A DNA stretch of 64,000 nucleotides from contig CAVPDB010000002.1 of NCBI GenBank assembly GCA_963702545.1, positions 17,941 to 81,940 on the forward strand, written 5' to 3'. The position numbers and the translations under genes were made by a program. Below, one piece after another: positions 31,017 through 42,289 of this stretch. Within the stretch, counting starts at the first letter, position 1. Every line of letters starts with the position of its first letter. This DNA comes from an uncultured Acidobacteriota bacterium (GTDB lineage: Bacteria; Acidobacteriota; Polarisedimenticolia; J045). Below the pieces are notes generated by a model. It worked only from the letters and a program-made list of their open reading frames with translations, searched no databases and was not told the origin of the DNA.

Positions 31017-32519
31017 TCAGCGGATCGCGGCGAGCAAACCCGTCCCGACGCGGGAAAGCGGCTCGAGCACCAGCCCCGGGTAGACCCCCAGGAGGATCGT
31101 GCCCGCGACCGCGGTGGCCAGGACGATCGCCGTCCCGACCGGGACCGTGATCCCCTCCGAGACCTCCGTCTCCGGGGCCTCGAAGAACATCGCCACGATC
31201 ACCCTCAGGTAGTAGGCCGCCCCCACCACCGCCGTGACCCCCATCAGGGCCGCCAGCACGCCGTGCCCGGCGTCGAGCGCGGCGAGGAAGATCACGTACT
31301 TCCCGGTGAAGCCGCCGGTCGGCGGGATCCCGATCAGCGAGACCAGGAACAGGCCCATCGTCCAGGCCAGGACCGGCTGCCGCTGCACCAGCCCCTTGAA
31401 GTTCAGGATGCTGTCGGCGTCCTCGCCGTCCTGCTGGAACAGCGAGACGACGGCGAAGGCCCCGACGGTCATGAAGGTATACGACAGCAGGTAGAAGACG
31501 ATCGACGAGGTCGAGACCGCGACCGGCGTCATCAGCGCCAGCAGCAGGTAGCCGGCGTGGGCGATCGACGAGTAGGCCAGCATCCGCTTGACGCGCGTCT
31601 GGACCAGCGCGACCAGGTTGCCGACCACCATCGTCGCGGCGGCCAGGACTGCCAGCACGGAGAGGCCGCGCGCGGCCAGCTCCGGCGAGGCCTCGGCCGC
31701 GCTGCCGACCAGCCGGATCAGGACCCCGAAGGCCGCGGCCTTGGTGGCGGCCGCCATGAAGCCGGTGATCGGGGTCGGGGCGCCGGTGTAGACGTCGGGA
31801 GCCCAGAAGTGGAACGGCACGGCCGCAACCTTGAAGGCGAAGCCGACCAGCAGCAGGCCGGAGCCGACGAGCAGCATCGCCTTGCCGTAGGGGGCCAGGG
31901 CCGAGGCCTCGCGAACCACGGCCACGATCCCGCCCAGGTCCAGGCGCCCGGTCGCGCCCAGCACCAGCGCGATCCCGTAGACCAGGAAGGCGGTCGAGAA
32001 GGCGCCGAGGATGAAGTACTTGAACCCCGCCTCGACCGCGGTGCTCTTGTCGCGCGTCAGCGCCGTCAGGACGTAGAGCGGGATCGAGAGGATCTCGAGC
32101 CCGAGGAAGATCATCAGCAGGTTGTCGGTGCCGACCATCATCGTCATGCCGGCGACCGAGAAGAACAGCAGCGGGAAGACCTCGGGGTGGTAGCCCCGCG
32201 CGCGCTCGAGGTAACGCGGCATGAACAGCAGCGCCATCACCCCGGCCAGCGCGCAGATGAAGTCGATCCAGAGCGCCAGCCGGTCGGTCCGGACCATCTC
32301 GCGGCCGGCGACGCCGGCTGTGGCGGCGAAGTCGACCACGCTGCCGATCCGGCCGAGCATGATCAGCGGCACCGCCGTGGAGACCAGCATCCCGGCGACG
32401 GCGAAGCCCCACAGCCAGCGCCGGTCGTTCCGGAGGGCCGGCGTGAAGACCAGGAGCAGCAGGCCGTACGCCGCGGGGACCAGCGTCGGGAGCGCCACCC
32501 ACCAGTTGAAGGTCGGCAT
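31017..32519 (-). CDS. nuoN: NADH-quinone oxidoreductase subunit N
   Basis: Internal start MPTFNWWVALPTLVPAAYGLL of ORF 31017..33446(-). FHFWAPDVYTGAPTPITGFMAAATKAAAF and YSSIAHAGYLL are NuoN signatures. Its ATG lies 2 nt after the nuoL stop. Confidence 0.85.
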   Translation of the reverse strand: MPTFNWWVALPTLVPAAYGLLLLVFTPALRNDRRWLWGFAVAGMLVSTAVPLIMLGRIGSVVDFAATAGVAGREMVRTDRLALWIDFICALAGVMALLFMPRYLERARGYHPEVFPLLFFSVAGMTMMVGTDNLLMIFLGLEILSIPLYVLTALTRDKSTAVEAGFKYFILGAFSTAFLVYGIALVLGATGRLDLGGIVAVVREASALAPYGKAMLLVGSGLLLVGFAFKVAAVPFHFWAPDVYTGAPTPITGFMAAATKAAAFGVLIRLVGSAAEASPELAARGLSVLAVLAAATMVVGNLVALVQTRVKRMLAYSSIAHAGYLLLALMTPVAVSTSSIVFYLLSYTFMTVGAFAVVSLFQQDGEDADSILNFKGLVQRQPVLAWTMGLFLVSLIGIPPTGGFTGKYVIFLAALDAGHGVLAALMGVTAVVGAAYYLRVIVAMFFEAPETEVSEGITVPVGTAIVLATAVAGTILLGVYPGLVLEPLSRVGTGLLAAIR

Positions 32520-32521
32520 CG

Positions 32522-34705
32522 TCAGGACCCCATCATCATCCAGGCGACCAGCACCGCGCCGCCCAGGAGCCACAGCGCGTACTGCCGGACTGCGCCCGAC
32601 TGGAACAGCTTCAGCACCTGGCCCGAGAACTCGGCGCTCGCGCCGGCCAGGTTGACGGCACCGTCGATGACGCGGCCGTCGAACCCGGCGAAGAAGCGCG
32701 AGACCGCCCAGAACGGGCCCAGCACGAAGCGGTCGTACAACTCGTCGACGAACCACTTGCGGTGCAGCAGGCGCCGCAGGAAGGGGATCTTCGCGGCCAG
32801 CGCGGTGGCGCGGGCCATGCCGTCGCCGTAGGCCCAGCGGGCCGCGACCAGCCCGGCCGCGAAGATCGCCGCGGCCAGCGCGAACAGTCCCCACTCCTCG
32901 GGCATCGACGGGTGCCGCCGCCAGCCTTCGGTCAGGACCGCACCGTGCCCGGCTCCGTCCGGGTCCGCACCGTGCCCGGCGTCCGCGCCGTGCCCGGCCT
33001 CGGCCCCGTGCGCCGCCTTCGCCAACTTCGCCGGCACGCCCTGCGCCGCCACCACCGGGTGCAGCACCTTCTCGAACCAGTTCAGGTTGGGGCCGTGCAC
33101 CAGGTTCGTCACCCCGGCCGGAATCCCCAGGAACCCGACCACCACCGCCCCCGCCGCCAGCGTCACCAGCACGTACGTCATCACCCGCGGCGACTCGGTC
33201 AGCTGCTCTTGCACCTCGCGCGGCGCCCGGTTCTCGCCCAGGAACGTCATCCAGTAGCAGCGGAACATGTAGAACGAGGTGAAGACCGCCCCGATCAGAC
33301 CGAACACCCAGAGCCACGCGTTCCCCCGGTTCGAGAACAGCGCCTGCGCCAGGATCTCGTCCTTCGACATGAACCCCGACAGGAACGGCAGCCCCGTGAT
33401 CGCCAGCGTCGCCACCAGGAACGTCCCCGCCGTCAGCGGCATCCACTTCCTCAGACCGCCGTACCAGCGCATGTCGTTGCTGTGACCGCTGCGCGCGATC
33501 ACCGACCCCGCCCCCAGGAACAGGCAGGCCTTGAAGAACGCGTGCGTCACCAGGTGGAAGATCGAGGCCACGAACGCCCCCACCCCCGCCCCCAGGAACA
33601 TGTACCCCAGCTGCGACACCGTGGAGTACGCCAGCACCTTCTTGATGTCGTTCTGCGCCGTCCCCATCGTCCCCGCGAAGACCGCCGTCGCGCAGCCCAC
33701 GATCGCCACCACCAGCATCGCCGCCGGCGCGTGCCAGAACAGCGACGACATCCGCGACAGCATGTAGACCCCCGCCGTCACCATCGTCGCCGCGTGGATC
33801 AGCGCCGAGACCGGCGTCGGGCCCGCCATCGCGTCCGGCAGCCAGACGTAGAGCGGAAGCTGCGCGCTCTTCCCGGTCGCCCCCACGAACAAGAGCACCC
33901 CGATCCCGGCCAGGAGACCCGCCCCGTACCAGTAGCTCGACGAGCCGTTGATCGCCGCCGCGATCTCCGAGAAGTCGACCGTCCCGAAGGTCACCACCAG
34001 CAAGAGCAGACCCAAGAGGAACCCGAAGTCCCCGATCCGGTTCGTGATGAACGCCTTGCGCCCCGCGTCGGCGCAGGTCAGCCCGCTCTCCTTGTCGAAG
34101 ACCTGGTCGTAGAAGTACCCGATCAGCAGGTACGAGCAGAGCCCGACCCCTTCCCAGCCCACGAACATCACGACCATGTTCCCGCCCAGGACCAGCGTGA
34201 GCATCATCGCCATGAACAGGTTGAGGTAGGCGAAGAAGCGGTTGAACCCGGGGTCCCCCGCCATGTAGCCCAGCGAGTAGACGTGGATCAGCGTCCCGAC
34301 GAAGGTCACGACCATCAGCATGATCGCGGTCAGCGCGTCGAACGCGAAGGTCCAGTCGATCGCCACCCGCGCGAAGCGCCGGCCCCCCTCGTCCCAGCCC
34401 TTGAGCACCGTGTCGGTCGCCGGCATCCAGCTGAGCGGCGTCACCTCGAACCGAGGCGCCTCGTGCTCCGAGCCGACCGCGACCTCGTAGACCCCCGGGT
34501 GCGCCGCCGCCAGCGCCTCGTACTTCCCCACGCCGCCCGAAAAGTCGATCACCGCCCCCAGCGCCAGCAGGAACGACAGCGCGGAGGCCGCCACGCCGAC
34601 CTGCCCCGCGACCTTCGCCGGCAGCCGGCCGTACATCGTCAGCAACCCGATGACGACGAAGCCCGCGAGCGGGGCCAGGGGGATCAGCCAGATGTACGGA
34701 AGCAT
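32522..34705 (-). CDS. nuoL: NADH-quinone oxidoreductase subunit L (with Gly/His-rich insertion)
   Basis: 727 aa. MLPYIWLIPLAPLAGF..., WLPDAMAGPTPVSALIHAATMVTAGVY, and the C-terminal long-helix region (DELYDRFVLGPF...). It has the insertion HGAEAGHGADAGHGADPDGAGHGA. Confidence 0.85.
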   Translation of the reverse strand: MLPYIWLIPLAPLAGFVVIGLLTMYGRLPAKVAGQVGVAASALSFLLALGAVIDFSGGVGKYEALAAAHPGVYEVAVGSEHEAPRFEVTPLSWMPATDTVLKGWDEGGRRFARVAIDWTFAFDALTAIMLMVVTFVGTLIHVYSLGYMAGDPGFNRFFAYLNLFMAMMLTLVLGGNMVVMFVGWEGVGLCSYLLIGYFYDQVFDKESGLTCADAGRKAFITNRIGDFGFLLGLLLLVVTFGTVDFSEIAAAINGSSSYWYGAGLLAGIGVLLFVGATGKSAQLPLYVWLPDAMAGPTPVSALIHAATMVTAGVYMLSRMSSLFWHAPAAMLVVAIVGCATAVFAGTMGTAQNDIKKVLAYSTVSQLGYMFLGAGVGAFVASIFHLVTHAFFKACLFLGAGSVIARSGHSNDMRWYGGLRKWMPLTAGTFLVATLAITGLPFLSGFMSKDEILAQALFSNRGNAWLWVFGLIGAVFTSFYMFRCYWMTFLGENRAPREVQEQLTESPRVMTYVLVTLAAGAVVVGFLGIPAGVTNLVHGPNLNWFEKVLHPVVAAQGVPAKLAKAAHGAEAGHGADAGHGADPDGAGHGAVLTEGWRRHPSMPEEWGLFALAAAIFAAGLVAARWAYGDGMARATALAAKIPFLRRLLHRKWFVDELYDRFVLGPFWAVSRFFAGFDGRVIDGAVNLAGASAEFSGQVLKLFQSGAVRQYALWLLGGAVLVAWMMMGS

Positions 34706-41907: not shown

Positions 41908-41908
41908 C

Positions 41909-42289
41909 TCAGCGGTCCCAGTCCAGGGCGCCGCGGCCCCAGGCGTAGGCGAACCCGGCGAACAGGATCGCGATGAAGACCAGCATCTCGACCAGCACGA
42001 ACCAGGCGCCCGCCGTCCCGACCTGGTTCTTCAGCTCGACCGCCCAGGGGTAGAGAAACACCGCCTCGATGTCGAACAGGATGAAGAGCATCGCGATCAG
42101 GTAGAACTTGACCGTGAAGGGGTGGCGGGCCGACTCGAACAGCCGGCTGCCGCATTCGTACGGCGTCGCGTCGGTCGTGCGGATCCGGGGCCGCCCGGCC
42201 ACCGCCGAGAGCAGGATGATCGCCCCCGGGATCACGATCGCGAGGCAGAGCAGGACGAGCAGCGTGAAGGTGTTGTAGGTCAGCACCAT
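41909..42289 (-). CDS. nuoA: NADH-quinone oxidoreductase subunit A
   Basis: 126 aa: MVLTYNTFTLLVLLCLAI...PYECG...KFYLIAMLFILFDIEAVFLYPWAV... Confidence 0.85.
   Translation of the reverse strand: MVLTYNTFTLLVLLCLAIVIPGAIILLSAVAGRPRIRTTDATPYECGSRLFESARHPFTVKFYLIAMLFILFDIEAVFLYPWAVELKNQVGTAGAWFVLVEMLVFIAILFAGFAYAWGRGALDWDR

Follow-up and report, generated by a model that had tools for sequence, protein, structure and literature searches.

How does a bacterium assemble complex I when its nuo operon encodes eleven of the 14 core subunits? The question is raised by a 64,000-nucleotide (nt) stretch of DNA from an uncultured Acidobacteriota bacterium (contig CAVPDB010000002.1, positions 17,941 to 81,940), termed here the window. 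The minus strand at 31017-42289 carries eleven tightly packed genes in the order nuoA-C-D-E-F-G-H-J-K-L-N, and nuoB, nuoI and nuoM are missing from the series. The arrangement recurs in related genomes, and its genes are under purifying selection. The operon probably contributes to an ordinary 14-subunit complex I, with NuoB, NuoI and NuoM supplied from unlinked genes.

Gene order and subunits of the operon

The genes are given below in the order of transcription, followed by a candidate promoter.

41909-42289, minus strand: nuoA, 126 amino acids (aa); PF00507 6.5e-34; 87% identity to the proteins of two relatives, L002 and L003
41416-41907, minus strand: nuoC, 163 aa; PF00329 8e-46; TIGR01961 136.6 bits, over the cut-off
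40176-41378, minus strand: nuoD, 400 aa; TIGR01962 540 bits; quinone-site residues His29 and Tyr78
39614-40129, minus strand: nuoE, 171 aa; GTG start; PF01257 1.4e-52; TIGR01958 160 bits
38315-39598, minus strand: nuoF, 427 aa; TIGR01959 604 bits
36631-38296, minus strand: nuoG, short form of ~554 aa with a +1 frameshift; TIGR01973 418 bits (cut-off 470)
35575-36612, minus strand: nuoH, 345 aa; TTG start as listed; PF00146 2e-116
35048-35578, minus strand: nuoJ, 176 aa; GTG start; PF00499 7e-33; overlaps the nuoH stop by 4 nt
34721-35044, minus strand: nuoK, 107 aa; PF00420 1.2e-26
32522-34705, minus strand: nuoL, 727 aa; NF005141 646 bits; TIGR01974 615 bits; also PF00361 and PF00662 among the antiporter-like genes
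31017-32519, minus strand: nuoN, 500 aa; TIGR01770 411 bits; starts 2 nt past the nuoL stop
42350-42379, minus strand: sigma-70-like promoter candidate, TTGACA-18-TAGCAT with TG, ~60 nt upstream of the nuoA start

Each product was assigned to the expected complex I subunit with Pfam and NCBIfam profiles. Profile searches of every product also show that none of the called genes is a nuoB, nuoI or nuoM homologue, and the gene order reported in a preliminary description of this DNA is confirmed. That description put the genes no more than 50 nt apart, which agrees with the measured distances of -4 to 46 nt. The gaps are 37 nt for C-D, 46 nt for D-E, 15 nt for E-F, 18 nt for both F-G and G-H, 3 nt for J-K and 15 nt for K-L. 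At the remaining junctions the distances are 1 nt (A-C), -4 nt (H-J) and 2 nt (L-N), so that nuoB, nuoI and nuoM cannot fit at their canonical positions, as had been proposed.

The operon encodes all of the membrane subunits NuoA, NuoH, NuoJ, NuoK, NuoL and NuoN, as judged by profile matches, but no M-type gene: L and N are the only antiporter-like subunits encoded in the window. The possibility that the gene called nuoN is a misnamed nuoM is ruled out by NCBIfam scores and phylogeny. The 500-aa product scores 411 bits with the N profile TIGR01770 (cut-off 332.6) versus 147 bits with the M profile TIGR01972 (cut-off 263.8). A neighbour-joining tree of NuoL, NuoM and NuoN was built from tblastn segments of proteins from 21 related loci and Escherichia coli. 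The 500-aa protein falls in its N clade, and the M clade is without any protein of this cluster type. The N-type assignment of the preliminary description therefore holds by both the tree and the profile score.

The NADH-oxidising N-module is also encoded, by nuoE, nuoF and nuoG, although nuoG needs a frame correction. Cysteine and histidine ligand motifs for iron-sulphur clusters are present in the translations of all three genes. In nuoE the cysteine motifs QICTTVSC and VECLGSCGTAP are readable in the translation, as are ESCGQCTPCREG and TICPLADAA in nuoF. The spliced product of nuoG matches the domains Fer2_4, NADH-G_4Fe-4S_3, Fer4_Nqo3, Molybdop_Fe4S4 and Molybdopterin.

The missing genes are not found elsewhere in the window. 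E. coli NuoB and NuoI gave no tblastn match in the whole 64 kb at E<=1, and E. coli NuoM matched the L and N genes only. The window has a G+C content of 72.5%, and coding frames are clear at a third-position G+C (GC3) of at least 0.9. Among the 30 neighbouring open reading frames (ORFs) picked by GC3 frame, Pfam scans detected no Oxidored_q6, NuoI-type ferredoxin or third antiporter-like protein. Genes for NuoB, NuoI and NuoM are thereby absent within 22-31 kb on either side of the operon. A fusion of NuoB with NuoC or NuoD was considered and is ruled out, as NuoC and NuoD are both single-domain proteins.

Two further features of the locus can be mentioned. The promoter candidate is the sole promoter-like match in 30500-43200 (12.7 kb), where 0.2 are expected from shuffled sequences. 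It matches the consensus and no more than that, and it overlaps with an ExbB-like gene at the latter's 3' end. NuoL residues 565-590 (32936-33013) form a His/Gly/Ala-rich low-complexity loop (AHGAEAGHGADAGHGADPDGAGHGAV) located before the transmembrane helix that precedes the lateral helix of the protein. Close relatives differ widely in the length of this loop, which is longer in L003 and L008 and missing from E. coli.

Related loci and the lesions in nuoG and gdh

The nearest matches of NuoH are from uncultured Acidobacteriota metagenome-assembled genomes (MAGs), with 91% identity in L002 and L003 and 98% in the partial L006. When all nuo subunits were mapped onto the 80 loci returned for NuoH, the order A-C-D-E-F-G-H-J-K-L-N was found complete in seven (L002, L003, L008, L009, L013, L015 and L016). 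Seven more are cut by contig ends and are consistent with it (L004, L005, L007, L010, L011, L012 and L014, the last labelled Polarisedimenticolaceae). None of these 14 loci has room for nuoB, nuoI or nuoM, and the L-N junction is likewise without nuoM. The 14 loci represent species-level Acidobacteriota genomes from differing studies and assemblers. As their proteins are 44-95% identical to those of the window, the arrangement is old and stable. The idea that the layout is an oddity of this one genome is not borne out; the same contiguous order in 14 related genomes makes it a lineage-specific arrangement, an outcome that the preliminary description had named among those that would count against its view.

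The closest relatives extend the likeness beyond the operon. L002 and L003 align collinearly with the window over ~17 kb (29500-46609) at ~88% nucleotide identity, and collinearity resumes past a short break downstream of gdh, the glutamate dehydrogenase gene. The 90%-identity clusters of the window proteins have 3-50 members, mostly from Joint Genome Institute (JGI) soil metagenomes and some labelled 'Acidobacteria bacterium'. Of nine window proteins looked up, eight have an exact counterpart in a public protein collection, the exception being NuoL.

Two lesions are found in the sequence, one inside the operon and one next to it.

37938-37940, minus strand: 1-nt insertion in nuoG, between ...SFRHGQA and STRFQEEK...
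29559-30881, minus strand: gdh, just downstream of nuoN, with an in-frame TAG at 30141-30143 (motif GFGNAG*FAAK)

The nuoG span is 1666 nt, not a multiple of three, and has no intact ORF in the window. By three-frame translation, the reading frame of the first 118 codons (...ECKLQEYSFRHGQ) gives way to the +1 frame for the remainder (STRFQEEK...RCIKCTRCIRFC...). All six relatives aligned at the site (L002, L003, L004, L005, L008 and L012) have one base fewer. In all likelihood the extra base therefore does not belong to the system: it would be an error of assembly, or else a lesion that arose very recently in this one sequence. The nuoG ORF is intact in each of four relatives checked (L002, L003, L004 and L008), with about 554-569 codons, or 560-569 when counted from stop to stop. 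Programmed frameshifting was considered and is unlikely, since no slippery motif is present and the extra base is missing from all relatives aligned there. The preliminary description reported a short NuoG of about 555 aa; this length stands, being that of the relatives, but the insertion that disrupts the ORF had been missed. A short NuoG is normal for this lineage and for others, and forms of 557-560 aa (L164, L167 and L168) and 487-505 aa (L083, L169 and L171) are found in other lineages.

At the position of the gdh TAG, L002 and L003 have TCG, a serine codon. Recoding of TAG was rejected as an explanation, as TAG terminates nuoE, nuoF and nuoK. It is the ordinary stop of these genes, and as the sequence stands the gdh TAG is thus a genuine stop. 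L002 has a frameshift of its own, in nuoD (5233-6430; the tblastn match passes from frame 1 to frame 2 near residue 190), as well as other lone 1-nt indels. These point to sporadic indel errors in such MAG assemblies, and sporadic assembly errors are the simplest explanation of the lesions.

Other partial nuo clusters are found in and around the phylum. The order A-C-D-E-F-G-H-J-K-L-M-N, without nuoB and nuoI, occurs in Acidobacteriaceae, in Sulfotelmatobacter and in one Binatia MAG (for example L019, L025 and L032). Thermoanaerobaculia-like Acidobacteriota have A-E-F-G-H-J-K-L-M-N, without nuoB, nuoC, nuoD and nuoI (L167, L168, L038, L040 and L070). In L167 (2274-14335) and L168 (2341-14320) this cluster is followed by gdh, with a nuoN-gdh junction as in the window. 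That nuoN is directly followed by gdh in all three suggests an orthologous locus. Judging by gene order, the two cluster types look like one ancestral locus from which different genes have been removed; the ancestral nuo-gdh locus seems to have lost nuoC and nuoD in one lineage and nuoM in the other.

A different partition is found in three contigs of ~40% G+C (L164, L165 and L166). Their nuoABCDEFGHIJK cluster stops after nuoK, and the next genes encode dihydrofolate reductase, a thioredoxin-like protein and S-adenosylmethionine (SAM) synthetase. As the cluster stops there, nuoL, nuoM and nuoN would be located elsewhere in that organism. The Acidobacteriota locus L066 (3400-16087) has A-B-C-D-E-F-G-H-I-J-K-L-N, with nuoB and nuoI kept and nuoM missing, and its NuoL groups with the clade of the window in the L/M/N tree. 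L066 keeps nuoB and nuoI yet is without nuoM, so an operon can lose nuoM independently of the other two genes. Further fragments consist of L-M without N (L161) and, from a metagenome scan, of EFJKLMN or JKLMN clusters. Around this clade nuo genes are often dispersed.

The source of NuoB, NuoI and NuoM

All eleven nuo genes are under purifying selection. In comparisons with L003 and L002, every gene has a ratio of nonsynonymous to synonymous substitution rates (dN/dS) of 0.07-0.35, both halves of nuoG included. NuoD aligns without gaps to Nqo4 of Thermus thermophilus (E 2.9e-124), the closest among solved structures, and its His29 and Tyr78 correspond to Nqo4 His38 and Tyr87, the residues to which the head group of quinone binds in the T. 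thermophilus structure. In solved complex I the quinone site lies at the interface of NuoD and NuoB beside cluster N2, and electrons are routed to it through NuoI; NuoB bears N2, and NuoI bears clusters N6a and N6b. A canonical NuoD that is maintained by selection therefore suggests that NuoB and NuoI are made somewhere.

NuoL gives a corresponding indication for NuoM. In known structures the lateral helix of NuoL spans NuoM and NuoN, and a membrane arm with only NuoL and NuoN would be expected to need a much shorter one. The NuoL tail was measured from the conserved VDE(L/I)Y motif to the C-terminus, a segment that comprises the lateral helix and transmembrane helix 16 (TM16). It is 76 aa long in the window, where it begins at VDELYD, versus 74 in E. 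coli. Across the loci the same segment has 75-77 aa in clusters without nuoM and 77-83 aa in clusters with it. A lateral helix of normal length points to a membrane arm built for three antiporter-like subunits.

Purifying selection, a canonical NuoD and a normal lateral helix together argue for a canonical enzyme that receives NuoB, NuoI and NuoM from other loci. The cluster would then represent the main NADH:quinone oxidoreductase (complex I) operon of a high-G+C soil Acidobacteriota lineage, with 11 of the 14 core subunits. It would supply the NADH-oxidising NuoEFG, the quinone-module subunits NuoC and NuoD, and the membrane subunits NuoA, NuoH, NuoJ, NuoK, NuoL and NuoN. NuoB, NuoI and the middle antiporter-like subunit NuoM would be made from unlinked genes and join the operon products in an otherwise canonical, L-shaped enzyme of 14 subunits. 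The unlinked genes may possibly be shared with other partial clusters of the same genome. We consider an ordinary 14-subunit complex I of this kind probable, with the three genes most likely located elsewhere in this genome and their products joining this complex. The preliminary description left a choice between subunits encoded elsewhere and a partial second module. From selection, the canonical residues, the lateral helix and the precedent of Hausmann et al. (2018) we infer the former, and the partial second module is disfavoured.

Some observations weigh against this proposal. No nuoB, nuoI or nuoM gene has been tied to this genome, of which 64 kb is visible, or to any genome with this cluster type. 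The nuoG frameshift and the gdh nonsense codon leave room for inactivation in this strain. The one stand-alone locus that turned up, a nuoA-nuoB pair at L082 (9548-10627; CP070701.1), belongs to an unrelated Acidobacteriota genome. With no related genes on either side, it exemplifies a lone nuoB locus in the phylum.

The hunt for the three genes covered several sources. Protein searches with acidobacterial NuoB, NuoI and NuoM, in databases sampled in small part, gave no match attributable to the clade. Seven NuoB, NuoI or NuoM matches whose genomic context was inspected lie in canonical or other partial clusters, none of them of this clade. High-G+C-looking matches, chosen by amino-acid composition, proved to belong to canonical operons with all of A-L in the usual order. 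In a metagenome scan with a NuoM alignment, nuoM adjoins nuoL and/or nuoN in every locus long enough to judge; L161, which had appeared to hold an orphan nuoM, turned out to be the L-M cluster without nuoN.

Of the other explanations, a decaying or redundant second cluster would have lost nuoB, nuoI and nuoM and suffered the nuoG frameshift while a complete operon elsewhere does the work. The frameshift and the nonsense codon in adjacent gdh are what such decay might leave, and several Acidobacteria do have more than one nuo cluster. The dN/dS values are nevertheless low in all eleven genes and in both halves of nuoG. The gene is intact in the four relatives checked, and the extra base is in none of the six aligned. 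The isolated frameshift of L002 lies in another gene, nuoD, and fits sporadic assembly indels. A second nuo cluster did not come to light, though no search aimed at one was made. The eleven-gene set is moreover unchanged down to ~45% protein identity, unlike that of decaying clusters, and decay is accordingly unlikely. Misassembly or binning that dropped three genes is an explanation of still another kind. The sequence is apparently a metagenome assembly with at least one probable indel error, and its closest relatives are all MAGs. Yet the A-C, H/J and L-N junctions are alike in kind in 14 independent assemblies, and the ~17 kb collinearity with L002 and L003 runs across the cluster, so that an artefact is improbable in the extreme.

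A reduced complex I is a further alternative. NuoL and NuoN would be its only antiporter-like subunits, fewer protons would be moved per NADH, and NuoB and NuoI would come from elsewhere. It is consistent with the lack of nuoM from the cluster in every clade member and in the L066 type, and no unlinked nuoM attributable to the lineage turned up in searches; those searches, however, covered a small part of the databases and were not aimed at these genomes. The NuoL tail is not shortened (75-77 aa, compared with 74 in E. coli and 77-83 where nuoM is present), and extra unlinked nuoM copies are on record in other Acidobacteria. This reading is very unlikely. If it were true, with no nuoM anywhere in the genome, these bacteria would have a natural 'short-arm' complex I, its proton-to-electron ratio would be lower, and the case would be important for the mechanism of proton pumping. 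The evidence points away from a true absence of nuoM, and the finding is largely ordinary and lineage-typical. Another scheme refines the 14-subunit proposal and does not contradict it: one unlinked set of nuoB, nuoI and nuoM may serve two or more partial nuo clusters per genome, so that complexes with different A/C/D/E/F/G/H/J/K/L/N paralogues share these subunits. The complementary partial clusters of related Acidobacteriota (ABCDEFGHIJK, AEFGHJKLMN, L-M and EFJKLMN) are suggestive of such combinatorial isoforms, and peatland MAGs have multiple operons alongside separate nuoB and nuoI copies. No genome of this clade was seen to combine two cluster types, and sharing of this kind is possible but somewhat doubtful.

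Neighbouring genes and comparison with known systems

The other genes of the window are housekeeping genes, and Pfam scans found none related to complex I. They encode ExbB-like and TolC-like proteins, an ABC ATPase, LepA, an AmmeMemoRadiSam pair, glutamate dehydrogenase, an AddAB-like helicase-nuclease and sugar-metabolism enzymes. Two groups have the following coordinates.

27837-29444, minus strand: fused Memo-AMMECR1 protein
25688-27169, minus strand: radical SAM protein, adjoining the former; the two make up a fused version of the AmmeMemoRadiSam trio
53187-60272, minus strand: two large adjacent ORFs, one with UvrD-helicase and PD-(D/E)XK nuclease domains and the other with PD-(D/E)XK; AddA/AddB-like, with local G+C of up to ~80%

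A single ARAGORN match at 1004-1095, with an undetermined anticodon, lies inside a coding region and was treated as spurious.

The window operon shares its subunit families, relative gene order and NuoEFG with the canonical 14-gene nuo/nqo operon (E. coli nuoA-N; T. thermophilus nqo1-14). The E. coli Nuo proteins are 34-50% identical to those of the window. It differs from the canonical operon in that nuoB, nuoI and nuoM are missing and in that NuoG has ~554 aa, versus 908 aa in E. coli.

Closer counterparts have been described in peatland Acidobacteria, which have nuoACD(EFG)HJKLMN operons (Hausmann et al., 2018, ISME J, PMC6018796, supplementary text). Table S2b of the same work has nuoB and nuoI on other scaffolds, along with some additional copies of nuoM. 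These operons are from the same phylum and, as in the window, nuoB and nuoI are missing and nuoEFG is included. They keep nuoM between nuoL and nuoN, whereas the clade of the window is without it, and their proteins are ~38-60% identical to those of the window. That acidobacterial nuo operons can be without nuoB and nuoI is thus already on record, in supplementary material only. In the papers searched, Hausmann et al. (2018) was the only precedent, and no description of an operon that is also without nuoM came up; such an operon is a modest addition to what is known.

The phylum routinely encodes complex I in pieces: this clade omits nuoB, nuoI and nuoM from the operon, and its neighbours omit nuoB and nuoI, or nuoB, nuoC, nuoD and nuoI. 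Genomes missing any subunit were scored as without complex I by Spero et al. (2015). Wherever a pathway-completeness tool or a survey asks for 14 co-located nuo genes, these abundant soil Acidobacteriota would come out as partial or as lacking complex I, and recognition of the split arrangement avoids such false negatives. The arrangement also raises a modest question of assembly and regulation, namely how the stoichiometry of three unlinked genes is matched to an eleven-gene operon and whether their products are shared between paralogous clusters.

The AEFGHJKLMN-gdh clusters have the closest NuoG outside the window's own clade (52-55% in L036, L038 and L070, and 47% in L040), in the same short form of 557 aa. 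Their NuoE and NuoF similarity is among the highest, with the NuoF of L029, L034, L024 and L066 equally close. They are without nuoC and nuoD as well as nuoB and nuoI and, unlike the window, they keep nuoM.

Assembly of one complex I from several loci is known outside the phylum. In Rhodothermus marinus the nqo genes are in two operons plus separate genes, and the cyanobacterial ndh genes are scattered; these systems have the split in common with the proposed enzyme, but the lineages and the partition of genes differ. Complex I-like enzymes of 11 subunits, such as cyanobacterial NDH-1, Fpo and nuo11, are without the N-module and take in electrons through an alternative module, whereas the window has nuoE, nuoF and nuoG. 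The count of eleven genes in the window is thus a coincidence with respect to these 11-subunit enzymes.

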